A DNA stretch of 64,000 bases from Oscillospiraceae bacterium (GTDB taxonomy: Bacteria; Bacillota; Clostridia; Oscillospirales; Acutalibacteraceae). Location: assembly GCA_015065975.1 (NCBI GenBank), contig SVPG01000001.1, positions 66,115 to 130,114 on the forward strand, read 5' to 3'. Below are positions 4,131 to 64,000 of the stretch, in pieces; positions within the stretch are counted from its first letter, which is position 1; the number at the start of each line of letters is the position of its first letter. A model generated the notes under the pieces. The model was not told the DNA's origin, searched no databases, and saw only the letters and a program-made list of their open reading frames with translations. Made by a program: the position numbers and the translations under genes.

Positions 4131-4907
4131 ATGATAGGTATATATTTCAGCGGAACAGGTAATTCCGCATACGCGGCAGAGGTTTTCATGAAAGCATACG
4201 ACGGCTCCTCTGACGTGTTTCCAATCGAAGACAAAAAGCTTCCGCAGCTTCTCAAAGAACACGACGAGCTTGTAATAAGTTACCCCGTGCAGTACAGCGA
4301 TGTTCCAAAGTTTCTCAGAGATTTCGTGCACGACAACCGCGACGTATGGCGCGGAAAAAGAATCTTCATCATTGCCACAATGGCGTTGTTCAGCGGAGAC
4401 GGTGCAGGCGTTCTCGGACGTCTGCTCAAGCAGTACGGCGCAGAGATAACGGGCGGTCTGCATCTGCAGATGCCCGACAGCATCGCTGACGAAAAGGTGC
4501 TGAAACGCTCGCTTCGCGCAAACATTCAGCTCGTGGAAAAAGCCGCCGAAAAAACAGCAAAAGCCGCTCAAAGTATAAAGAGCGGGCGATATCCGCAGGA
4601 AGGTCTTGGGCTTCTGTCCCGTCTTGCGGGATTTCTGACTCAGAGACTGTGGTTCGGTTACAGGACTCGGAAGTACAGCAGCCGATTAAATATCAATACG
4701 GAAAAATGCGTCGGCTGTTCAAAGTGCGCAAAAGCCTGCCCGACACAGAACATCGTGATGAATGGCAACAGAGCCGAAGGACTCGACAGATGCACGCTGT
4801 GTTACCGATGTGTGAATCTCTGCCCGAAACAGGCTATCACACTTCTCGGAAAAAGAGTTGTCGAGCAGACCTGCATCGAAAAATATTCAGGGAGAAAAGA
4901 CATATGA
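4131..4907 (+). CDS. EFR1-family ferredoxin (flavodoxin-like domain plus 2x[4Fe-4S] ferredoxin domain)
   Basis: N-terminal GIYFSGTGNS flavodoxin-like motif; C-terminal CVGCSKCAKACP and CTLCYRCVNLCP cysteine clusters. Confidence 0.8.
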   Translation: MIGIYFSGTGNSAYAAEVFMKAYDGSSDVFPIEDKKLPQLLKEHDELVISYPVQYSDVPKFLRDFVHDNRDVWRGKRIFIIATMALFSGDGAGVLGRLLKQYGAEITGGLHLQMPDSIADEKVLKRSLRANIQLVEKAAEKTAKAAQSIKSGRYPQEGLGLLSRLAGFLTQRLWFGYRTRKYSSRLNINTEKCVGCSKCAKACPTQNIVMNGNRAEGLDRCTLCYRCVNLCPKQAITLLGKRVVEQTCIEKYSGRKDI

Positions 4908-5479
4908 GCGAAAGACCGCAATTGAGCAAAGAGCTTGACGCAAATACCTTTCTGAGCTTCTATTATCTCAAAGAGGAGCTGGTAGATTTCTGCCGTGAAA
5001 ACGGATTGCCCTCTTCGGGTGGAAAGGCTGAGCTCACCGACAGAATTGCCGTTTTCCTCGAAACAGGAAAAATCCTGAAGGCTTCCTCAAAAAGAAAAAC
5101 AGCGTCAACCGTCGGCATTATCACCGAGGACACGATAATAGAACCCGATATCGTCTGCTCCGAAAAGCATCGCGCATTCTTTACCGAAAAGATAGGCAAA
5201 GGCTTTTCTTTCAATGTCCTCTTTCAGAAATGGCTGAAAAGCAACGCGGGAAAGACCTATAAAGACGCTGTAGATGCATATTACCGAATCCTCGAAGAAA
5301 AGAAAAAGGGGAAAGCCACAATAGACAAGCAGTTTGAGTACAATACATACATTCGCGATTTCTTCGAGGCAAATCCCGGAAGGAGTCTTGAAGAAGCCAT
5401 CGTCTGCTGGAAATACAAAAAGAGCGTGCAGGGACATAACCGATATGAACGGTCGGACCTTGCCGCATTGGAGAGATAA
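4904..5479 (+). CDS. SAP domain-containing protein
   Basis: LPSSGGKAELTDRIAVFLETGK SAP motif; the ATG overlaps the upstream stop (ATGA), so translation is coupled. The six-frame ORF starting at 4649 is an in-frame upstream extension inside the ferredoxin gene. Confidence 0.6.
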   Translation: MSERPQLSKELDANTFLSFYYLKEELVDFCRENGLPSSGGKAELTDRIAVFLETGKILKASSKRKTASTVGIITEDTIIEPDIVCSEKHRAFFTEKIGKGFSFNVLFQKWLKSNAGKTYKDAVDAYYRILEEKKKGKATIDKQFEYNTYIRDFFEANPGRSLEEAIVCWKYKKSVQGHNRYERSDLAALER

Positions 5480-5522: not shown

Positions 5523-6373
5523 CAGTTTGCTTTAAGCTCGTTGTTTATATATCTTCTGAGGGCATCGCGCCACTCGGGAAGTCTCTCAAAACCGCTCAGT
5601 TCAAGCTTATCCTTTGACATTCTTGAGTTGAGAGGACGCTTCGCCCTTGCAGGATACTGATCGGAGGTTATGGGGTTGACCTTGCAGTCAAGTCCCGCCT
5701 CCTCCATTATAGCCTGCGCAAATTCGCACCACGAGCAGATACCCTCGTTGGTTGCGTGATAGATTCCGTATTTCTCGGTTACGACCATATCACAAAGCAG
5801 ACGCGCAAGGTCGAGCGTATATGTCGGCGAACCGATCTGATCGGCAACGACATTGAGGCTCTCTCTTTCTGCGCCGAGTCTCATCATCGTCTTTACAAAG
5901 TTCGCTCCGTTGAGACCGAACACCCACGATATTCTGACGATGAAATACTTCGACAGAAGCGCTGTCACTTCATCCTCGCCCTGCGATTTCGTAAGTCCGT
6001 AGACACTCTGCGGAGCCTTTGCATCGTCGGGCTCATAGAATCTCTCACCGCTGCCTTCAAAGACATAGTCGGTGCTGATATAGATCATCTTTGCGTCGAT
6101 ATCACGGCACGCATTGGCGACGTTTCTTGTGCCGAAACGGTTGACCGCCTCACACACCTCGGCGTTGTCCTCCGCCTTGTCAACTGCGGTATATGCAGCA
6201 CAGTGAACGACCGCATCGGGAGCGTAATTCTTTATATATGCCGAAACAGCCTCGCTGTCGGTAAGGTCAAAATCCTCGATGTCGACACCTTTGTTCTCAA
6301 TGCCGAGCTCATCGAGTCTTTTTACGACGTCATAGCCAAGCTGACCTTTTACTCCGGTTACAAGAATTTTCAT
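5522..6373 (-). CDS. rfbD: dTDP-4-dehydrorhamnose reductase
   Basis: MKILVTGVKGQLGYDV Rossmann N-terminus; synteny with rfbABC. Confidence 0.9.
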   Translation of the reverse strand: MKILVTGVKGQLGYDVVKRLDELGIENKGVDIEDFDLTDSEAVSAYIKNYAPDAVVHCAAYTAVDKAEDNAEVCEAVNRFGTRNVANACRDIDAKMIYISTDYVFEGSGERFYEPDDAKAPQSVYGLTKSQGEDEVTALLSKYFIVRISWVFGLNGANFVKTMMRLGAERESLNVVADQIGSPTYTLDLARLLCDMVVTEKYGIYHATNEGICSWCEFAQAIMEEAGLDCKVNPITSDQYPARAKRPLNSRMSKDKLELSGFERLPEWRDALRRYINNELKAN

Positions 6374-23790: not shown

Positions 23791-24098
23791 TATCGGACAT
23801 TCCTTTCGAGACTATCCCATATTAAAAATTCCGATATATTATACCATATGTTTACAGAAAAGTACAGTCAAATTTGACATCACCAACCTTTTACGGACAG
23901 ATTCAATGAAATTATCTCTTTTATCGGATTTGGCGATTTATTTTTGGCAATTTTCATCATATAAATTACTGCGAGTATACGAATTGCCGTCCGAAAAGCG
24001 CTATTGATTTTTATTACCCCGTATGATATTATTTTTAGTATATAGCCATTTTACGATCATATTCGGTCTGCCTGTGCAGGCTTTAGGAGGATTTACCC

Positions 24099-33267: not shown

Positions 33268-33380
33268 AATGGGGTGCTGACTTAAAGTCGGCTGAGATTC
33301 CGAATGGAAAACCCGGGAACCTGATCCGGATAATGCCGGCGTAGGAATTTGTATTTACTTGTCACACGTCAGGGTTTCTC
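33268..33380 (+). ncRNA. TPP (THI-box) riboswitch with terminator-type expression platform
   Basis: ggggtgc...gctgaga...aacctgatccggataatgccggcgtaggaa matches the THI-element consensus. Followed by a CACGUC/GGCGUG hairpin with a U-run, upstream of thiT. Confidence 0.85.
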
Positions 33381-33475
33381 CGGGCGTGCTTTTTTATAAA
33401 GTGCGCCGGGTTTCTTTCGGTTTTTCGGGTACGGTTTTCTGTCCGCTCTCCAAAAATCGAAAGGATTGTCAAAAC

Positions 33476-34081
33476 ATGAAAAAGAACACCAAAACCACAA
33501 AGCTTGTCGTCTCCGCACTCATGATCGCGCTGGGCACCGTTCTGAGCCTGCTCTCGATCGGACTTCCCTTCGGCGGTTCGGTCACAATGGGCGCTATGGT
33601 TCCGCTCGTTGTGCTCAGTCAGACCTACGGCACCGCATGGGGACTCTTTGCCTGCTCCGTTTACGGACTTCTCCAGCTCGTTCTCGGACTTGACAACTTT
33701 GCGTATGCCACCACTCTGACCGCTGTGCTTGTCCTCTTTGTCTTTGACTATGTAGTTGCCTACGGTATGGTCGGCTTCTCCGGTCTGACAAGAAATATGA
33801 AAAACAAGGCTGCCGCAGGCGCACTGGGCGCTGTCATCGGCTGTGCCATTCGTTTTGTGATGCACTGTGTCAGCGGTGCGGTCGTCTGGGGACAGTGGGC
33901 TGATGTAACCGCCATTCCCTCCTTCCTGCACAACACCTTCCTCACAAGCGAGGATTTCCTTATCTATTCATATTCGTTCTTCTATAATCTTTCATATATG
34001 CTTCCCGAAACCGTGCTGACAGCCATCGCGGCGGCAATCATCTGCCCGATCCTCAGAAAAAGCAACGTTCTCGGAGAATAA
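33476..34081 (+). CDS. thiT: ECF-transporter S component for thiamine
   Basis: Six-TM small protein directly downstream of the TPP riboswitch. The start is the ATG at 33476; the ORF track's 33359 start would run through the riboswitch. Confidence 0.8.
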   Translation: MKKNTKTTKLVVSALMIALGTVLSLLSIGLPFGGSVTMGAMVPLVVLSQTYGTAWGLFACSVYGLLQLVLGLDNFAYATTLTAVLVLFVFDYVVAYGMVGFSGLTRNMKNKAAAGALGAVIGCAIRFVMHCVSGAVVWGQWADVTAIPSFLHNTFLTSEDFLIYSYSFFYNLSYMLPETVLTAIAAAIICPILRKSNVLGE

Positions 34082-57790: not shown

Positions 57791-58825
57791 TTACTGAGCC
57801 TTCTTTTTTGAATCTTCTTTTATGAAGGAATATCCAACGAGTCCTATCAGCGATACCGATTTTGCCATGTAGAGCAAAGTGACCCATACCGAGGTCGTTC
57901 CTACCATATCAAAGCCGAATCGATTGATGTTAGCAAGAGGATTTGCAATCTCCCCGGCTATAAGGGCAGCACGCTCGAACCCGCCAACATATTTCTCGTT
58001 TGGCACGAGCTGAGCATCATAAACATCTTCACCGATAATCAGCTTATGCGTCTGAGGATCATAATAGGAGATTCCTTCGTAGCTTTCGTCGTTATATCTG
58101 TCATCAATCTCACTCACGTAATCAAAGGACTCCACTGTTTTGGGATAAGAAAGAGGGATCTCCGAAAGAATACCTCCGAAATAAAACACAACAGACAAAG
58201 CAATAAGCAGCAAAGCCGCGACCATTTTGAATCTGACACGGCGTATGATCCACGCATACACAGCCAAAGCAGACAGCATAACAAGAAGCTGACCTATAAG
58301 CATAAGAATTATCGCAGGGGTTCTGAGGCTCATAACAAAGCCTTTTGCCAGCAGAACGGCAAAAACGATGCCGATATATACTGCCCAGCAGATCACACCG
58401 CCAAGCAGCACATCGCGGTAGTGTTTCCTTGCACAGGACTCATTCTTTTTCACCAGAAAATACTGACCGAAAAGAAGCGCAATAAACGTATATATAATCG
58501 AGCTGCTGATAAAAAATCCGGTGTATCTTTCTCTGATCGCAGGAATGCTTTCGTTGAAGTATTCGGTCGCATCAGCCTCGTTCATCCCTTCCATTTCCAC
58601 ACGGAACATATCCTGACAGAGTATGTCGTCATAAACAAAATACGCGTTACTGTCGGCATAGGACGGCAGATTTACAGCTTCATCATAGGTTCTTGCAAAA
58701 TCAATGATGTTACTCAGATTCATTGCCATCAGAAGAATAAACACCACGACAAATATCAGCACAGACACCGCTGCAGACTTATTATTTTTTGCAAATTCAG
58801 CAATTCTTTTTGTATTCACGGTCAT
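57791..58825 (-). CDS. Hypothetical polytopic membrane protein
   Basis: 344-aa ORF with about 7 hydrophobic helices; no recognised family. Confidence 0.5.
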   Translation of the reverse strand: MTVNTKRIAEFAKNNKSAAVSVLIFVVVFILLMAMNLSNIIDFARTYDEAVNLPSYADSNAYFVYDDILCQDMFRVEMEGMNEADATEYFNESIPAIRERYTGFFISSSIIYTFIALLFGQYFLVKKNESCARKHYRDVLLGGVICWAVYIGIVFAVLLAKGFVMSLRTPAIILMLIGQLLVMLSALAVYAWIIRRVRFKMVAALLLIALSVVFYFGGILSEIPLSYPKTVESFDYVSEIDDRYNDESYEGISYYDPQTHKLIIGEDVYDAQLVPNEKYVGGFERAALIAGEIANPLANINRFGFDMVGTTSVWVTLLYMAKSVSLIGLVGYSFIKEDSKKKAQ

Positions 58826-58888
58826 TCTCCTCCAACCTCTTATTTATTCAAGCCTGTGAATTATAACACAAATACAGATGTCTTGCAA

Positions 58889-58911
58889 TCGATAAGAATG
58901 TAATTATCTCT
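58889..58911. repeat. Core repeat cgataaGaatgtaattatctctt (copy 1)
   Basis: The 16-bp exact match aatgtaattatctctt also occurs at 61925-61940, with shared cgataa flanks. Confidence 0.6.
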
Positions 58912-58977
58912 TAGAGAACATCCATTAACGTTTACGAACTAAATGTTTTGATTAAAAATAACATTTTTAGTTCAACG

Positions 58978-59346
58978 TCAAGTCATATCAAAAGTATTAA
59001 CTTTCGCAACATTGTACAATACCGCCAACAATTCTCTTTGTAATTTAGGGAGCTTGTTAAACACAGCAGGTTTCATTTCTATTTTTATTTTCACATCACT
59101 ATACAATAGTATGTATGGTGGTTTTGCAATCATATTACGTTCTCCAATACACCTTGACTGTTCAAATGTAATTTTTACAGTATTACCTTGCCAATCTTTA
59201 AATCCACTTTTATTAACATGTTCGACCCAGTTTTTCCTACACTCATCGAATAGGACTTTTTCTATGGTACCTTCACCATCGTTATATATAATACCATCCA
59301 CAGTTACATCAATTATATCTTCTATACTTATTATTTTCTCTAACAT
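58978..59346 (-). CDS. Hypothetical small protein in a low-GC cassette (possible immunity-type protein)
   Basis: 122-aa ORF; local GC about 33% versus about 53% elsewhere. Confidence 0.4.
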   Translation of the reverse strand: MLEKIISIEDIIDVTVDGIIYNDGEGTIEKVLFDECRKNWVEHVNKSGFKDWQGNTVKITFEQSRCIGERNMIAKPPYILLYSDVKIKIEMKPAVFNKLPKLQRELLAVLYNVAKVNTFDMT

Positions 59347-59672
59347 TTATTTTCTCCTATTAGCTTTTAAATTCAGTATTTTTTATTTTACCACTTTTCT
59401 ACTCTAAATTCTATATCTTCTACGCATATCACCAATACTCTTTTGATCAAATATACCTTTTGGCAACCACGCCAGAATACAATAAAAACTATCACCAATG
59501 TTACCGCCGCTGTCGGAAGGCCATTATCCATAATTACTCTTGCAGCAATCAAAGCTATAACTGCCACGGCAGATAATATGCTGTTCCATCAACAACAAAC
59601 GCGCCGTCAAGATACTTGGCGGCGCTGAACTAAAACCTTCCGAATTTTTCTTAGAGCTGCTTATCAATTAAT

Positions 59673-60173
59673 TTACATACCTGCAACAAACAAATACACT
59701 GGCAAGCCGAACCCATAAAAGACCAATCTTGACGCATTGGATTCACTTTTATGCTCTAACTGATCTTTATAAGTACGATAAAAGCGCTTTGCAGTTTTTC
59801 GCACTTTCTTAACACATCGTTTGTAATTACCCTTTATGTCCGATGTCATATTTATTTTATGTTCTTTATCTCGTGCAAATACATTATCCGATGCAATGGT
59901 CATAGCTATATTAAACAGACAATACTCTGCCCACTCAATATCCTTCGCTTCTATTTTTCGATCAAGCAGATCTGTCAAATAAGGTAACACTATATATGCC
60001 GCGGGATAAAATGACATCTGGTGATTGATCCCTTGGTATACTTTCTCTGTAGCATCCTTGTCATCAGGGTCATTAATTAATGCTTTTATGTCCTCAGACA
60101 TATTACCATATGCGCCATAATATTTATCCCAGTTTTCAGACCCAATTGCTTCAGTTGTGATCTTCTTTGCCAT
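59673..60173 (-). CDS. Hypothetical protein in a low-GC cassette
   Basis: 166-aa ORF with a Lys-rich C-terminal half; no family recognised. Confidence 0.4.
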   Translation of the reverse strand: MAKKITTEAIGSENWDKYYGAYGNMSEDIKALINDPDDKDATEKVYQGINHQMSFYPAAYIVLPYLTDLLDRKIEAKDIEWAEYCLFNIAMTIASDNVFARDKEHKINMTSDIKGNYKRCVKKVRKTAKRFYRTYKDQLEHKSESNASRLVFYGFGLPVYLFVAGM

Positions 60174-60336
60174 TACATCTCACGCTTTCATATTAATATT
60201 TGATAGTAGATTTGATTTTTTTCTGTAAAAGCAATCAACTTCACAAATCAGTAAGTTCGTTGTATATAAAAAGCCAAAACACCTTTCTTTGTTTGATTAT
60301 ATATTTTTCTTCCTGTTTGTCAAGGCACGAATACAC

Positions 60337-60369
60337 AAAAATCCCGCAGCCGTACGGCTGCGGGATTTT
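60337..60369. repeat. Hairpin repeat aaaaatcccgcagccgtacggctgcgggatttt (copy 1, terminator-like)
   Basis: Perfect 9-bp stem CCCGCAGCC/GGCTGCGGG. Near-identical copy at 61884-61914. Confidence 0.7.
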
Positions 60370-60402
60370 CAATCGACAATAAGATTGAAAGACATAAGAC
60401 TG

Positions 60403-60858
60403 TCAGACCCAAGTCTTTCTGTCACACAACAATCTCACTCCCAAAACAAAAACAAAGGCTCCAAGAGCAATGAAAAATCCCCAGATATAATTCCAGTACA
60501 CCGACTGAACATCAAACATCATCAGCGGTAATGAGTTCCAGATTTTCAGGTTAGTTGCTATTGCGAACAAATCAAACAACACATAACAGCCACCGAATAT
60601 GTATATCCATCGCCACCGGAAGTTGCTTTTTATGTTTCTGCAGAATGTCGCAATTCCAAGCACACAAAGTGATGCCAGAACTCCCATCAGTATAAAATAG
60701 AAAGCTCCTCTGCTTTCCAATATTCCAAGCCAAAAATCAGCATATGAGTTTCTGTCAATCAATGCCCATAGTCTATGCAAGTGAAAAACTCCGAAAAAAA
60801 TGAAAAACCAAGGTTCCCACGCATATATTTTCTTCACATATCTCACCGCCAAATTCAA
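60403..60858 (-). CDS. Small hydrophobic membrane protein (LytTR cassette partner)
   Basis: 151-aa, four-helix profile, Trp/Phe-rich. Confidence 0.5.
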   Translation of the reverse strand: MNLAVRYVKKIYAWEPWFFIFFGVFHLHRLWALIDRNSYADFWLGILESRGAFYFILMGVLASLCVLGIATFCRNIKSNFRWRWIYIFGGCYVLFDLFAIATNLKIWNSLPLMMFDVQSVYWNYIWGFFIALGAFVFVLGVRLLCDRKTWV

Positions 60859-60889
60859 AAATCACTTTACAGCTATACAATAAAAGCTG

Positions 60890-61327
60890 TCAGTTATTCT
60901 GGAGTTTTTTTAATTTGCAATTCAGACGCTGATCATCATGCTTGTTTTTCAGCCACAGAACATACCACATTGCGAACAGACCGCACTCCATAATGGCGAT
61001 AAAAAGAATACCGTACAGAGTGGAAATCCCCGGAAACCATCCGAAAACGATTGCCCCGCCGATATAGAGAACATTGGCAAGCACCGCCCACACTGCTACT
61101 CTCCAGCCTGTAACACCCCACTCCTTACCCTGAGGGAACAGAATACTTTCTGCGCAGGCAAAAACCAGACTGACCAACAGCATCTGGAACATAGACAGGG
61201 TTTCTACGAAAGACTTTCCTACGATAAGATTAAATATCGATTTTACAAAAACAGCGGCTACTGTATATATTGCCATATGATACTTCATATCCGCCGCCCA
61301 CAGATATGCTTTATTAAATGCTTTCAT
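60890..61327 (-). CDS. DUF3021 family membrane protein
   Basis: 145-aa four-TM protein immediately downstream of a LytTR regulator, the canonical DUF3021 context. Confidence 0.6.
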   Translation of the reverse strand: MKAFNKAYLWAADMKYHMAIYTVAAVFVKSIFNLIVGKSFVETLSMFQMLLVSLVFACAESILFPQGKEWGVTGWRVAVWAVLANVLYIGGAIVFGWFPGISTLYGILFIAIMECGLFAMWYVLWLKNKHDDQRLNCKLKKLQNN

Positions 61328-61345
61328 AATATTTGCACCTTTCCT

Positions 61346-61783
61346 TTACATGCCAAGTTTTTCCCGAAGCATGGGAGCATAGTGACGGGAAATAATCAGC
61401 CGTTCTCCTGTAGAGAGACGGGCTTCAATACGCCCGGCGCCACAATTTTTCAGCTTCCTTATCTCTTGCAGATTGACAACAGAGGATTTTCCGGCTCGGA
61501 ACAACCCCAAATCTCCCCAGTAATCTTCCAGTTCCGCAAGAGAAAGAGCGGTCTGAAACATACCCTCCCGTGCATAGACAAAAGTCTTTTCTTCTACTGT
61601 TTCACAATATATCACTTCCGAAATCGCAAGCAGAACTGTCTCGCGGTTTTCGTCCCAAGCAAGCAGCTTCTGCATCCCGCTTCGCAGTAACGATAAAACC
61701 CGCAACATCTCATCGTCCAATTCAGGACACCTTAACACGACCTCATTTTCCTCCAAAGGTACATGCTCTACAATGATCTTCAT
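61346..61783 (-). CDS. LytTR-family DNA-binding regulator (no receiver domain)
   Basis: C-terminal SSVVNLQEIRKLKNCGAGRIEARLSTGERLIISRHYAPMLREKLG is LytTR-like. Confidence 0.7.
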   Translation of the reverse strand: MKIIVEHVPLEENEVVLRCPELDDEMLRVLSLLRSGMQKLLAWDENRETVLLAISEVIYCETVEEKTFVYAREGMFQTALSLAELEDYWGDLGLFRAGKSSVVNLQEIRKLKNCGAGRIEARLSTGERLIISRHYAPMLREKLGM

Positions 61784-61883
61784 GAAATCCTCCTTTCTGT
61801 CATCAGGCCCTTTGACGCAATTATCATATCATCAGTTTTGCCCCCTGACAAGGTCAGTTCCGCTAAGTGGTAGAAATATCGGG

Positions 61884-61914
61884 GGAAGATACAAAAATCC
61901 CGCAGCCATACGGC
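61884..61914. repeat. Hairpin repeat aaaaatcccgcagccatacggctgcgggattt (copy 2)
   Basis: One loop substitution (g to a) relative to copy 1; followed at 61921-61940 by the core repeat cgataatgtaattatctctt. Confidence 0.7.
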
Positions 61915-62305
61915 TGCGGGATTTGGTAAGCGATAATGTAATTATCTCTTGGAGCTGCAAGGAGTACTTGAGGGCTTCTTTGATTATTTCAAGTGCCTTT
62001 TGAAAAATCACGATGCTGCTGCGCTTTTCTGCGCAAAGCAGACCGATACACTTTGAGCAGCCTGCAATCGTATATTGTAATCTGAAGTAATTAATCGAAT
62101 GTTTTTTCGAGGTATAAAGACCAAATAAAGACCAAAAAGTAAGGTGTACCTGCTGCAATATATCAATCAGAATCCGGTTTTGAGAGCAACGGCGAAGGCG
62201 AATACTACATCTACATTTTTGTCGGATAAATACGAAGGCATAACATAAGCGCCGCTGGGGAATTAACCCGGGCGGTGCTTGGTCATTTGGTTCGGAAAAC
62301 TGAAG

Positions 62306-63124
62306 TTATCTTATATAACCTTTTTTCTTTGCATAATCACCAATGATAAATGCGACAGCTATAATAAGCAGAATAAATACAGATAATATATCCCAAATAT
62401 CAACTACAGGCTCGCCAATCATTTTTGACAATGTACTATTTATCACAAATGTAAATGGAATCGCAAACAAGAATGTAATTCCTGTTGCCAAAAGTTTTCG
62501 TTCCTTAAGTCGATGATACAGAATATAAATTATCCACAGAAATACAAGTGAAATAATTGACATAATCGCACCAATGTTGAATACCTCATTGACTTTTATC
62601 AAAATACTTAATATGTACATAAATGGTACAATGAGAATACTAATGGCAACCATCGCTACCAAAACACCTTTTTTCCCCAACAATATAACAGGAAAAGATG
62701 CTATCCATGTAATCAAAACGGAACCAAGTACAATAAGTGACCATGTCAGTGTTCCCGAAATAGCAATATCACATATTCCACATACCAGAATACCAATAAC
62801 CATAGTAATTGTATAGATTATTGAGATTACGGCATTTTTGTTCATATTATTCTCATCTTTTCGTTTTAATTCAATAAGATTTTCATTGACTTTTTCTTGG
62901 TAATTATTCATTTCTATCCTCTCCCCACTTAATAGTTCGTTGACCGTAACACCTAAAATATTGCAAAGCTCCAACATAATAGATGAATCGGGCATACATT
63001 TTCCTGTCTCCCATTTGGAAACAGCTCTGTCAGTGATGTTTAACTTTTCTGCCAATTGCGCTTGTGTCAGACCTTTTTCTTTTCTGCAACTAGCGATAAA
63101 CTTTCCTGTATCAATTTGATTCAT
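62306..63124 (-). CDS. Membrane-anchored XRE-family HTH regulator
   Basis: N-terminal LTQAQLAEKLNITDRAVSKWETG HTH; the C-terminal half has 5-6 hydrophobic helices. Confidence 0.7.
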   Translation of the reverse strand: MNQIDTGKFIASCRKEKGLTQAQLAEKLNITDRAVSKWETGKCMPDSSIMLELCNILGVTVNELLSGERIEMNNYQEKVNENLIELKRKDENNMNKNAVISIIYTITMVIGILVCGICDIAISGTLTWSLIVLGSVLITWIASFPVILLGKKGVLVAMVAISILIVPFMYILSILIKVNEVFNIGAIMSIISLVFLWIIYILYHRLKERKLLATGITFLFAIPFTFVINSTLSKMIGEPVVDIWDILSVFILLIIAVAFIIGDYAKKKGYIR

Positions 63125-63230
63125 TTCAATATGCCTCCTTTCACGCTACACTTTACAATTTTTATCAGTTTTTGTACACGAACTGTAGGTAGAATTATCA
63201 AATTCAACCATTGGTTGGGAGAGGTATTCA

Positions 63231-63827
63231 TCAACTTAATAAAAAAATCATAATCCGTTCCCGCAAGTCATTTTCTCCAAACAAATCACTGCAAGCTATC
63301 TCATCATAAAATTCCAACTCGTCCACTGTCATAAGGTAGGAAATATACTCCTCCGAGGGATAATAAAAAAACAGAAACATTTCCCTCGGTTTCTCATAAT
63401 AAGATTCTATAATTCTTGCCATCACTTTCCGAAGTATCTCCACCGAAAAAGGATTAAAAAAATAGCACCGATTGACTGCCCCCGGCACTTCGTACTCTTC
63501 TGCTCTCATCAGTACAAATTCCGATTTTGCTCTCGAAACCACAGTCTTCAGATTTTCCAGCGCACTCTGATAAATTCGTTCATCATATTCAATACCTATG
63601 GTATTTGCTTTCGTTTGGTAGGACAGGAAAAAATCCACACGTCCCTTCCCACAACCATAGTCCAAAACCACATCCTTTTTACAAATCAAGCTACTATTAC
63701 TCAAGCGCTCCAAAACACTATATGGCGTGGGCTCATATGGGTAACGATATTGGTCAGCGTTCGAAGCATCCCGCCCGGTTGTTTTTATTTGCAAAAGCTT
63801 ATCCCATGTATTTTCGTTATCTATCAT
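63231..63827 (-). CDS. Class I SAM-dependent methyltransferase
   Basis: VLDYGCGKGRVDFFL motif I; low-GC context. Confidence 0.65.
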   Translation of the reverse strand: MIDNENTWDKLLQIKTTGRDASNADQYRYPYEPTPYSVLERLSNSSLICKKDVVLDYGCGKGRVDFFLSYQTKANTIGIEYDERIYQSALENLKTVVSRAKSEFVLMRAEEYEVPGAVNRCYFFNPFSVEILRKVMARIIESYYEKPREMFLFFYYPSEEYISYLMTVDELEFYDEIACSDLFGENDLRERIMIFLLS

Positions 63828-63871
63828 TTTCCGCCTCTATCAATCATACAAATTTGCATCCTATTTGGTAA

Positions 63872-64000
63872 TTATCCCAACAGTAACTTTGCCATTTGTT
63901 CCAATGCATTACGCTCTTCCGTATCATCATAGGCAGTTTGCTTATCGTCAATTCCTTTCACAACATTGATGGAAAACAAACCATCTCTGTTACAATAAAA
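63872..64000 (-). CDS. Partial CDS (C-terminal end only), hypothetical
   Basis: Open minus-strand frame ...DGLFSINVVKGIDDKQTAYDDTEERNALEQMAKLLLG* running off the window edge. Confidence 0.3.
   Translation of the reverse strand, partial: FYCNRDGLFSINVVKGIDDKQTAYDDTEERNALEQMAKLLLG

Follow-up and report, generated by a model that had tools for sequence, protein, structure and literature searches.

The gene rpsI encodes ribosomal protein S9. Its 3' end is an established target of tyrosine-integrase IMEs/ICEs in streptococci, where tandem accretion as well as decayed elements at these sites are known (PMC5357655, PMC4701971, PMC5090054). Furthermore, an rpsI-integrated ICE has been reported for the gut clostridium Roseburia hominis (PMC12904643). 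In the window studied here, i.e., the whole stretch of 64 kb that was analyzed, a composite islet of accessory genes occupies the interval from 58.9 to 64 kb and extends beyond it. It is built of small, self-contained, co-oriented transcription units, each with its own promoter, and it contains three sites (A, B, and C) resembling the rpsI 3' end. The features of the region are as follows:

57791-58825, minus strand: 344-aa membrane gene
58860-58888, minus strand: promoter-like site of the 344-aa membrane gene, TTGCAA-17-TGnTATAAT (consensus scan), directly downstream of site C
58886-58919, minus strand: site C, rpsI relic with the last 16 nt gttctctaagagataa (..F S K R stop) and the 3' UTR variant ttacattcttatcgattg
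58935-58975, minus strand: AT-rich stem-loop aactaaaaatgtt...aacatttagtt 3' of the 122-aa gene (sequence, MFE fold), likely a weak terminator
58978-60173, minus strand: module E3, orphan genes (the following three)
58978-59346, minus strand: E3 122-aa gene (ORF)
59388-59567, minus strand: E3 possible 59-aa TM ORF (ORF)
59673-60173, minus strand: E3 166-aa gene (ORF)
60296-60323, minus strand: promoter-like site with perfect consensus, TTGACA-16-TATAAT, right after hairpin B and 5' of the 166-aa gene
60329-60390, minus strand: site B, rpsI-3'UTR-like tttcaatcttattgtcgattg, hairpin 60338-60369 (loop GTAC), T tail
60403-60858, minus strand: 151-aa three-TM protein (ORF, TM segments)
60877-61896, minus strand: LytTR regulatory unit (promoter region, LytTR regulator, 145-aa membrane protein)
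60890-61327, minus strand: 145-aa protein with roughly four TM segments
61346-61783, minus strand: LytTR regulator (Pfam LytTR, E=9e-18)
61823-61896, minus strand: LytTR-unit promoter region GTATCTTCC-12-ACCACTTAG-11-TTGTCA-17-TATGAT (alignment; conserved)
61885-61954, minus strand: site A, last 13 nt of rpsI (ctccaagagataa), 3' UTR (ttacattatcgcttacc), rpsI terminator hairpin 61895-61924, T tail
61955-62305, no strand: 351-nt spacer between site A and the XRE gene coordinates
62306-63124, minus strand: XRE-family HTH regulator, C-terminal half multi-TM (Pfam HTH_3, TM segments)
63231-63827, minus strand: 198-aa SAM-methyltransferase-like protein (weak match, below Pfam thresholds)
63872-64000, minus strand: C-terminal 42 codons of a small protein of roughly 65 aa (homologue comparison)

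The hairpin-bearing repeat GAAKAYACAAAAATCCCGCAGCCRTACGGCTGCGGGATTT is 40 nt long and present in two copies with 93% identity (60329-60368 and 61885-61924), each including a perfect hairpin of 13-16 bp. The 30-nt hairpin pattern was detected at only two places in 64 kb, compared to zero expected from shuffled sequences. The core repeat AATGTAATTATCTCTTrGAG (20 nt) also occurs in two copies, being 95% identical (58897-58916 and 61935-61954), its exact 16-mer was found twice versus 0.07 expected, and a degenerate relative, caatcgacaataagattg, is located at 60370-60387. A third core match with one mismatch, at position 23905, is probably due to chance. Near-identical boundary hairpins, a shared 16-bp core, and its degenerate relative at 60370 had already been reported in a first-pass annotation of this DNA and were recovered here; its start positions 61884 and 61921 were approximately 10 nt off, since 61893/61895 is the start of the hairpin and 61931 that of the core string. 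The hairpins qualify as terminators, with T tails (TTTTTGT) read on the minus strand, and, since every gene between 57.8 and 64 kb lies on this strand, they represent minus-strand intrinsic terminators. Folding of the 81-nt stretches 61880-61960 (site A) and 60325-60405 (site B) yielded -29.0 and -33.7 kcal/mol, respectively, and site B acts as the terminator of the 151-aa gene.

By sequence comparison, the repeats correspond to the 3' end of rpsI and its terminator: the core is composed of the last 13-16 nt of rpsI (…FSKR-stop) followed by the rpsI 3' UTR, the hairpin is the rpsI intrinsic terminator, and sites A, B, and C are three rpsI relics, and not, as previously annotated, a hairpin and core forming a dedicated cassette-boundary pair. 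Intact rpsI followed by matching core and hairpin was found in three Clostridia genomes (L020, L024, and L032). In L032, the order is rplM, rpsI, core, hairpin, and, directly after, the LytTR unit (92.5% identity to window positions 60955-61954); L020 and L024 harbor different cargo behind rpsI, core, and hairpin, the cargo 3' of rpsI being different in all three genomes. Site A matches the true rpsI 3' ends of these genomes over 63-76 nt with 88-94% identity. Site C, at which an intact hairpin is absent, shares a 22-nt match (one mismatch) with the true rpsI end of L020, and the UTR-like stretch of site B resembles the UTR of site C. Sites A and C are each nearer to true rpsI ends than to one another. 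Their left starts lie within about 3-5 nt of one point, 13-16 nt ahead of the rpsI stop, and rpsI homology further upstream of either start was not found, which argues for a defined crossover point and against random breakpoints. The left edges nevertheless differ (A at -13, C at -16, B from the UTR only) and a partial hairpin copy in L020 begins inside the stem, so that no single clean att core can be written. All three sites are direct repeats, oriented as expected with rpsI upstream on the minus strand, and each is followed by a promoter-like element. Neither rplM nor rpsI was found anywhere in the 64-kb window, and the intact rpsI presumably resides upstream, beyond 64 kb.

The GC content averages about 50% over the window, amounts to 43-48% at 56-58.5 kb, and drops to 31-46% after 58.75 kb. 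This step coincides with site C, the distal boundary of the low-GC islet. GC3 is 0.25-0.48 for the islet genes (0.25-0.34 for module E3), compared to 0.52-0.66 for neighboring genes. The first-pass annotation was right about a GC drop (~53% to ~33-45%), its upper GC value being above the window average. For module E3, no matches were obtained in Pfam, NCBIfam, PADLOC, PHROG, plasmid, and PDB searches. Of the functions assigned before, Pfam confirmed the LytTR and XRE HTH domains, the methyltransferase signal being weak; the DUF3021 label for the roughly 4-TM membrane protein at 60890-61327 received no Pfam support, even at E<=10. Moreover, the proposed LytTR 'triad' turned out to consist of a LytTR unit of two genes and a third gene unrelated to it, with a breakpoint between genes two and three: the 151-aa gene is outside the conserved LytTR unit, and its 3' end is swapped at 60472 in the variant contig L005. 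The spacer at 61955-62305 showed no Rfam, Pfam, or rpsI homology and no match in other loci, and a 108-aa ORF overlapping the hairpin (61832-62158) is probably spurious. Homologues of the small protein at 63872-64000 are usually positioned after a 144-aa XRE gene; since the gene runs to the window end, the islet extends past the window.

Comparison with other loci showed the low-GC end of the window to be a patchwork of small, self-contained modules that varies between strains. The methyltransferase and XRE pair is present in L011, which diverges completely at window position 62303 into GNAT and SpoU genes; its identity is 100% over 63903-62619, with about 15% divergence over 62618-62305. As deduced from difference maps against L011 and L001/L002, the XRE allele is a recombinant with a crossover near 62618. 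The LytTR and membrane-protein pair (60877-61896) occurs in at least three other context groups with 72-78% nucleotide identity, and the homology block shared with L151-L163 runs exactly from 61896 to 60877/60915. The related strain L164 differs from the window at one position in about 900 nt (about 0.1%) across the 166-aa/122-aa module, and its divergence rises to about 3% from site C onward, the first difference (58896) lying inside site C. Gene-conversion-like patches were detected at 61004-61097 and 61198-61235. Homologues of the 344-aa gene (63% identity) do not adjoin rpsI, and no island-free relative providing an empty attB was found. These results bear out the earlier suggestion of separable modules, which are independently present in L011 and L151-L163, in a region that is not syntenic in relatives. 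Cassette-wise acquisition or recombination, as suggested before, holds with respect to a mosaic of independent modules, but only some breakpoints sit at repeats (61896, 61954, and about 58897), others being located within genes (about 62618 and 60472) or between 'triad' genes two and three (about 60877-60915).

The reading preferred here, in which we place about even confidence, is that decayed integrated elements accreted at rpsI-type attachment sites and were later reshaped by homologous recombination. The rpsI-end repeats would represent attachment-site scars (attL/attR-type direct repeats) left by successive site-specific insertions at an rpsI-3'-end target. Elements accreted in tandem would since have decayed to integrase-less CIME-like remnants or, alternatively, their integrase may reside beyond the window. 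Today, the hairpin copies serve as Rho-independent terminators insulating the modules, and homologous recombination between co-resident strains has since rearranged the islet, inside genes too. Accretion is suggested by the start of A and C near the same rpsI point, the GC and divergence steps at site C, the rpsI contexts in L032, L020, and L024, the direct-repeat orientation, the independent modules, the promoter-like elements and terminators, and the literature on elements integrated in rpsI. Small modules, ragged edges, off-repeat breakpoints, and the lack of an empty attB and of rpsI in the window argue against it. In agreement with the first-pass annotation, no integrase or transposase, and likewise no relaxase, is present at 45-64 kb, and the 7-8 kb that follow the true rpsI in L020 and L024 likewise contain no integrase. 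Since no integrase is visible, we infer the accretion mechanism, including the site-specific recombinase that would have made the junctions.

A possible but less likely alternative requires no dedicated recombinase: recombination of the homologous, homology-facilitated, or illegitimate type would have brought in the modules from donor genomes in which they were located just downstream of rpsI. This region would then be a hot spot where accessory genes generally collect, short rpsI-end/terminator fragments would be passengers, and hairpin B would go back to gene conversion or a local duplication. There is clear activity of ordinary homologous recombination (XRE crossover, conversion-like patches, and L005 switch), and both the unlike cargo in all three hairpin-bearing genomes and the integrase-free surroundings are compatible with this explanation; the independently derived relics A and C starting a few nt apart in rpsI, and a strain-identity step within about 25 nt of site C instead of in flanking homologous DNA, are unlikely with random breakpoints.

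We consider it improbable that the islet represents a dedicated system of hairpin-delimited cassettes, integron-like or IS200/IS605-PATE-like, in which a trans-acting recombinase recognizes terminator-like hairpins and moves promoter-bearing mini-cassettes in and out behind highly expressed genes such as rpsI and tRNA genes. Hairpin direct repeats do surround small units in three unrelated places: in the window, the LytTR unit and one further gene lie between the 40-nt repeats; a different 43-nt hairpin (81% identity) flanks the LytTR unit in L154; and in L020 a hydrolase gene is enclosed by the rpsI hairpin and a 30-nt copy, followed by three copies of a related hairpin, an array that is partly explained by tandem duplication of a gene and its terminator. 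Likewise, a 1.29-kb LytTR unit (>99.4% identical) occurs in five flanks, once abutting a tRNA 3' end, but is not hairpin-flanked. Furthermore, the hairpin has a perfect GC stem and a T tail, but no R/L boxes, GTTRRRY motif, or extrahelical bases; elsewhere it is the native, single-copy rpsI or tRNA terminator; the modules carry their own promoters; and no IntI, Y1-HUH, or other recombinase was seen. Nor is the hairpin dispersed: nearly all of the 24 genome loci (species genomes) and 107/107 metagenome contigs contain a single copy, often located behind tRNA genes, so that the check for a ubiquitous genome-wide family proposed earlier was negative. It is very improbable, and largely refuted, that the terminators are alike by chance or convergence, that they belong to a dispersed REP/MITE-like family, or that the palindrome caused an assembly artefact. 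Although the stem ATCCCGCAGCC-N4-GGCTGCGGGAT is also found in terminators of unrelated contexts, even in unrelated phyla, as fits convergence of GC-rich stems, and metagenome contig L003 shows a fold-back chimera at hairpin B, the identity reaches past the stem, covering 40 nt with the tail and, in addition, rpsI-UTR-like flanks, the copy numbers are low, and independent metagenome contigs from several samples bridge A and B (L001) and B and C (L012).

Among known systems, REP/BIME, MITEs, and IS200/IS605 PATEs share a short GC-rich palindrome with more than one intergenic copy; here, in contrast, the repeat occurs only twice in 64 kb and essentially once per genome elsewhere, it is tied to the 3' ends of specific genes, and no RAYT or TnpA was seen. 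Integron cassette arrays and CALINs resemble the islet in having co-oriented small low-GC genes, mostly of unknown function, between repeated hairpin-forming sequences and, for CALINs, in lacking a nearby integrase, whereas the islet hairpins show perfect stems of the terminator type and none of the attC architecture (R''/L''/L'/R' boxes), correspond to the native rpsI terminator, and separate units with promoters. Similar to MICs, i.e., transposase-less, passenger-carrying IS derivatives, the 1.29-kb LytTR unit of L159-L163 carries passenger genes without a transposase and is bounded by imperfect inverted termini. Its outermost 13-20 nt, however, vary between copies, the interior being nearly identical, and these ends, which the window copy lacks, resemble half-sites that derive from the target of a site-specific recombinase more than they resemble genuine terminal inverted repeats. 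The LytTR unit itself is reminiscent of HdrRM/BrsRM of Streptococcus mutans (PMC6193735): its 145-aa LytTR regulator stands alone and precedes a small membrane protein of the multi-pass type, and two conserved 9-nt elements with a spacing of 12 nt are located about 11 nt upstream of the -35 box; the element ACCACTTAG almost matches the HdrR/BrsR repeats ACCACTTAA and ACCACTTAT (PMC6193735), although the membrane partner has no Pfam family and the two 9-mers share only 4/9 positions. The rpsI IMEs/ICEs (IMESag-rpsI, the streptococcal Tyr_4/5/7 integrase families, ICE_RhoA2-183_rpsI, and accretions with CIME-type remnants) differ from the islet, in which no integrase, excisionase, relaxase, or oriT is visible, in their size (about 9-40 kb, far above the 1.4-1.6 kb of the islet modules), in the intact rpsI missing from the window, in the ragged repeat edges of the islet, and in the host (a streptococcus versus a ruminant-gut Clostridia MAG). 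They share with the islet rpsI-3'-end direct repeats bounding acquired, compositionally foreign DNA (PMC5357655, PMC5090054, PMC4701971, PMC12904643), several tandem repeat copies as in accretion, Cro/CI-type (XRE) regulators, and a ribosomal-protein-gene 3' end as target, and the islet is regarded as a tidy case of a known process rather than a new kind of system.

Every gene between 57.8 and 64 kb is carried on the minus strand, and the GC content, being approximately 50% over most of the window, falls to 43-48% at 56-58.5 kb and to 31-46% beyond 58.75 kb. The fall described in the first-pass annotation was reproduced, with a baseline of about 50% in place of the 53% given there, and the codon-usage deviation that it had proposed to check was found as well, GC3 being 0.25-0.48 in the genes of the low-GC islet (58.9-64 kb and beyond) versus 0.52-0.66 in their neighbours. 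Promoter-like sites come after each of the sites A, B, and C, which are relics of the rpsI 3' end at the module junctions.

Features of the islet in the order of the coding (minus) strand, from 64 kb downward.
63872-64000, minus strand: C-terminus of a ~65-aa protein
63231-63827, minus strand: SAM-methyltransferase-like gene (weak signal)
62306-63124, minus strand: XRE HTH regulator with a multi-TM tail
Between the XRE gene and site A: spacer of 351 nt without recognisable content
61885-61954, minus strand: site A
61346-61783, minus strand: stand-alone LytTR regulator, preceded by a conserved promoter
60890-61327, minus strand: 145-aa protein with ~4 TM segments
60403-60858, minus strand: 151-aa protein with three TM segments
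60329-60390, minus strand: site B
60296-60323, minus strand: promoter of perfect consensus, preceding orphan genes that code for 166 aa, 59 aa (possible gene), and 122 aa
After the 122-aa gene and before site C, minus strand: AT-rich stem-loop
58886-58919, minus strand: site C
Beyond site C, minus strand: gene for a membrane protein of 344 aa, preceded by its promoter
Past the 344-aa gene: ordinary chromosomal genes (TetR regulator, FMN reductase, DUF1538, AIR-synthase-related protein, RtcB)

No DNA matches indicating a plasmid or phage origin were obtained for 58860-64000, the 166-aa and 122-aa proteins had no plasmid matches, and PHROG, PADLOC, and PDB gave no informative matches. Scanned against Rfam, neither the 56-64 kb stretch (E<=1) nor the window as a whole yielded a relevant RNA family; the sole hit above the gathering score was a TPP riboswitch (RF00059; 33260-33365, plus strand; 70.3 bits) upstream of the gene at 33359-34081. 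The ~65-aa protein at the window edge has approximately 28 homologues, mostly 65 aa long and located on short contigs, with no family assignment; they were used in an attempt to extend the analysis past 64 kb and sit in unrelated contexts. In one locus (L040:4336-5007), a 144-aa XRE HTH gene precedes such a homologue, which suggests another small two-gene module.

Both repeats claimed for the junctions in the first-pass annotation are present, two of the start coordinates quoted there being about 10 nt off. A 40-nt direct repeat (93% identical) at 60329-60368 and 61885-61924 includes a perfect palindrome with arms of 13-16 bp (the hairpin), and a second repeat, AATGTAATTATCTCTTrGAG (the core), was located at 58897-58916 and 61935-61954. 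Beyond these two copies, the 30-nt hairpin pattern has no further copy in the 64-kb window (0 expected from shuffles). The exact core 16-mer occurs twice (0.07 expected), and a third match with one mismatch at position 23905 is probably due to chance. Since independent ruminant-gut metagenome contigs span hairpins A and B (L001) and hairpin B together with site C (L012), the arrangement is not an assembly artefact. Another contig (L003:1718-1785) folds back at hairpin B (window 60338-60405 inverted) and was regarded as an assembly chimera, because hairpin B is a perfect palindrome.

The origin of both repeats was deduced from three other loci. In L020 (Oscillospiraceae), the core and then the hairpin come after the rpsI 3' end (..R R A P Q F S K R-stop); the identical arrangement was found in L024 (Acutalibacteraceae) behind an rpsI ORF truncated by the contig end, and core and hairpin also follow a complete rplM-rpsI pair in L032 (Clostridia RGIG9077). 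Judging from these sequences, the core corresponds to the final rpsI codons plus 3'UTR, and the hairpin to the rpsI terminator. As each of them is a natural part of the rpsI 3' region, their 'pairing' represents the natural arrangement, and the dedicated boundary element previously proposed gives way to an rpsI 3' end with its terminator. Of 22 positions compared between site C and the true rpsI end of L020, 21 agree, for which we calculated a chance expectation of ~5e-7 in 64 kb. Site A retains 13 nt of the coding end, the UTR, and the hairpin; site C retains 16 nt of the coding end and a UTR variant, with the intact hairpin absent; site B retains the hairpin and a UTR stretch similar to the variant of site C. 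All three share one direct orientation. Upstream of the 13-16 nt at A or C, no rpsI homology was detectable, and tblastn found neither rplM nor rpsI in the 64-kb window, which holds the three relics only. An intact rpsI could lie beyond the 64 kb; the islet runs off the window end. The spacer at 61955-62305 was rejected as a decayed rpsI, tblastn, blastn, and shuffle-controlled local alignment all being negative.

On the minus strand, both hairpins display a 13-bp stem (8 GC pairs) and a TTTTTGT tail, the 81-nt stretches holding them are predicted to fold at -29.0 and -33.7 kcal/mol, and they are located downstream of a same-strand gene; by these properties, they are predicted Rho-independent terminators. 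Furthermore, a short, imperfectly palindromic sequence is made up of the rpsI stop codon and UTR at 61926-61948 (GATAAT-TAC-ATTATC, site A) and 58891-58913 (GATAA-N8-TTATC, site C), for which a second small stem-loop is predicted just upstream of the terminator. A co-oriented array was observed downstream of the true rpsI in L020 (380-6777; Oscillospiraceae SIG598), consisting of the rpsI hairpin, an alpha/beta hydrolase, a 30-nt hairpin copy, and a CAAX protease with XRE, and ending with a related hairpin (AACGTCCCGCACCC-ACAA-GGGTGCGGGACGTT) that is present three times between TIR-LRR and BspA-like LRR genes. Part of this array is a 730-nt tandem duplication.

A scan for the stem with any 4-nt loop, carried out on one genome per species (185,579 species), returned 24 loci, mostly single copies in unrelated contexts; one locus (L018) has two exact copies, and L020 has one exact and one partial copy. 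The stem lies directly behind tRNA genes at six loci and behind one conserved Lachnospiraceae gene at five, and a few loci belong to unrelated phyla. The metagenome scan added 107 contigs, every one with a single copy, mostly as the terminator of one gene in a single common human-gut species, and no stem was found in viral contigs. A metagenome scan with the rpsI-end pattern gave no hits, in a collection from which the contigs known to carry site C are themselves absent. A dispersed palindromic family (REP, MITE, or PATE) was rejected in view of two copies in 64 kb, single copies at nearly all genome loci and in all metagenome contigs, and none in viral contigs; likewise, the ubiquitous genome-wide hairpin family considered beforehand as a counter-explanation did not appear in these three scans. 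By a rough estimate, the presence of the hairpin in unrelated contexts would be consistent with strong GC-rich terminator stems having arisen convergently. In L018, two identical stems (loop GAAG; 5651-5676 and 5801-5826) are 150 nt apart, the second directly adjoining a tRNA-Leu gene (5829-5913, minus strand). The same 11-bp stem with differing loops (L019, L033, L034, L036, L038, L073, and similar loci) comes immediately after tRNA genes (Ser, Cys, Gly), as their terminator, in several Clostridia MAGs; many human-gut contigs have it as the terminator of a single conserved gene. The stem sequence is either re-used or convergent in unrelated places.

The LytTR label of the 145-aa regulator was borne out by a Pfam LytTR match over residues 48-143, and the protein is receiver-less. 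The downstream 145-aa protein (60890-61327) has approximately four hydrophobic segments; its previous label, DUF3021, found no Pfam match even at E<=10. The stretch comprising promoter, regulator, and membrane protein (the LytTR unit, 60877-61896) has counterparts of 72-78% nucleotide identity in L151-L153, L154-L158, and L159-L163, with differing neighbours on both sides, the LytTR and membrane pair being kept in all of them. In L032, the unit (92.5% identity) is located directly behind the true rpsI terminator. The T tail of hairpin A is the exact starting point of the homology block, which stops just past the stop of the 145-aa gene; therefore, the 151-aa gene is not part of the unit, and only a pair remains of the LytTR-DUF3021-membrane 'triad' described before. 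The unit edge abuts the terminator T tail, because the homology block starts at the first promoter element. The unit behaves as a portable module.

Five homologous promoters in the alignment share the order GTATCTTCC-12 nt-ACCACTTAG-11 nt-TTGTCA, with the consensus GYATCTTCC-12 nt-RCCRCTTRG-11 nt-TTGTCA-17 nt-TATGAT. GTATCTTCC and ACCACTTAG, a candidate repeat pair, are weakly similar to each other (4/9 positions shared), and the second element very nearly matches the HdrR/BrsR repeats. LytTR regulatory systems consist of a receiver-less LytTR regulator and a small membrane protein, with a 9-bp direct-repeat pair, 11-13 bp apart, located ~10 bp upstream of the operon -35 (PMC6193735). The module in the window fits the gene arrangement of this architecture, a receiver-less LytTR regulator being followed by a transmembrane protein gene.

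A 1.29-kb unit composed of an upstream hairpin, the LytTR regulator, and the 145-aa membrane protein was observed in five contigs (L159:438-1736 and equivalents in L160-L163) with >99.4% identity and entirely different flanks. Its outermost 13-20 nt are loosely conserved and feature imperfect inverted termini (ATCWRTTMRAC...GTCKAAYWGAT), which are absent from the window; it looks like a transposase-less mobile cassette, or the termini look like target-derived half-sites. In L162, the end of the unit adjoins the 3' end of a tRNA-Glu gene. The L160 copy stops matching the other four at …AAATTCCAAT, near L160:1760, and has lost terminal sequence kept in them; an IS110-family transposase (DEDD_Tnp_IS110 + Transposase_20; L160:1999-3192) is located ~240 nt downstream of this divergence point, which suggests that other sequence, possibly an IS110 element, was inserted in the cassette end. 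In L154 (also in L155), direct repeats of 43 nt (4312-4354 and 5417-5459; 81% identical) enclose the LytTR unit and represent a different terminator-like hairpin, CAGCGGCACCG...CGGTGCCG, a parallel to the hairpin pair of the window.

Comparison between strains showed that the region is truly mosaic and that some breakpoints lie away from the repeats. The methyltransferase-XRE pair of L011 is identical to the window at 63903-62619 and ~15% diverged at 62618-62305, past which unrelated GNAT and SpoU genes follow. L001 and L002 are 10% diverged at 62812-62617 and then nearly identical to the window down to 60309. Because these patterns mirror each other, the XRE gene is recombinant with a crossover near 62618, its mosaic allele (62305-62812) diverging by 10-15% on each non-matching side. 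The related strain L164, the only close relative recovered, differs from the window at one position in ~900 nt over the module of the 166-aa and 122-aa genes and by ~3% from 58896 onward; the first difference falls inside site C, and the GC step is at the same place. A homologue of the 344-aa gene at 95% identity (L164) is arranged as in the window, those at 63% identity lie in other contexts, and no island-free relative was found via these homologues. In the variant L005, the 3' end of the 151-aa gene is replaced at 60472, and site A exists in a different version. This strain variant has other sequence in place of the final ~70 nt of the gene and of all that follows, and three contigs (L005, L006, and L007) end or diverge within 15 nt of 60472. 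In the 145-aa membrane gene, differences grouped in small clusters at 61004-61097 and 61198-61235 look like gene-conversion patches. The cassette-wise acquisition suggested initially is upheld as regards mosaicism and independent modules (L011, the LytTR unit), but not all breakpoints coincide with the repeats.

The best-supported reading, which in our judgement is about as likely as not, is that insertions aimed at the rpsI 3' end left sites A, B, and C behind as scars of the attachment-site type. In its favour, the relics all face the same way as direct repeats and come from the 3' end of a conserved gene; two relics of independent derivation begin within a few nt of the same rpsI position; and the distal relic (site C) marks the island edge by composition and strain divergence. 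Insertions at the rpsI 3'-end target would leave sites A, B, and C as scars, and ongoing homologous recombination between strains would then account for the intragenic crossovers. In streptococci, IMEs and ICEs with tyrosine integrases target rpsI, and tandem accretion and decayed elements have been described for this site (PMC5357655, PMC4701971, PMC5090054); an rpsI-integrated ICE was also reported in Roseburia hominis (PMC12904643). Substantial points against such scars are the unusually small units, the ragged repeat edges, the lack of an rpsI in the window, the failure to find an empty site, and the absence of any visible integrase or mobilisation gene at 45-64 kb. In the part of the window scanned with Pfam (45.4-63.8 kb), no ORF carries a recombinase domain, and for this part the previous statement that no integrase or transposase is visible holds. 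The 7-8 kb that follow the true rpsI in L020 and L024 revealed no integrase, and the island proteins include no relaxase/oriT, coupling protein, or mobilisation function.

The main rival, to be considered possible though doubtful, is passive carry-over, by which rpsI-end and terminator fragments would have been taken along with the cargo from donors having cargo behind rpsI. A dedicated mechanism for hairpin-delimited cassettes, to which the direct repeats of a different hairpin around the LytTR unit in L154 and of the hairpin around the hydrolase gene in L020 would lend themselves, is improbable, given that the hairpins are native terminators without attC architecture or a co-occurring recombinase. 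A similarly long shot is that, in ruminant-gut Clostridia, terminators of highly expressed genes (rpsI, tRNAs) are landing pads for promoter-bearing mini-cassettes, inserted by a trans-acting recombinase that duplicates or re-uses the hairpin; these mini-cassettes may be LytTR regulatory units and single accessory genes. If true, this would be an integron-like gene-capture platform in which terminator hairpins take the place of attC; to our knowledge, classical integrons are not known in this phylum.

Returning to the proposed scars of rpsI-targeted insertion, the islet would stand as a clean, probably decayed case of an uncultured gut clostridium in which accretion took place at a site of the rpsI type. 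The novelty claim for the repeats dissolves, these being an rpsI 3' end and terminator and no new boundary element, and there is a small chance that the islet points to something new. The junction repeats have turned from an unexplained pattern into a readable history, which suggests that, in uncultured gut Clostridia as in streptococci, the region downstream of rpsI is a hot spot of gene acquisition. The junction sequences A, B, and C are concrete queries for complete genomes and long reads.

Compared with known systems, REP, MITE, and PATE elements occur in many copies per genome, whereas the hairpin of the window has two copies in 64 kb and is near single-copy elsewhere. Integron and CALIN attC sites feature boxes (R''-L''...L'-R'), a GTTRRRY core, and extrahelical bases; in contrast, the hairpins of the window lack the GTTRRRY motif and have perfect GC stems of 13-16 bp, a 4-nt loop, and a T tail. 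Integron cassettes are mostly promoterless and Pc-driven, whereas the sites of the window are each followed by a promoter-like site, and no IntI-like protein was found. Unlike IMEs and ICEs, the islet as far as it lies in the window revealed no integrase or mobilisation genes; CIMEs are devoid of an integrase by definition. With IMEs, ICEs, and CIMEs at the rpsI 3' end, the islet shares the direct repeats derived from this gene end at A and C (13-16 nt plus UTR) and the terminator at A and B.
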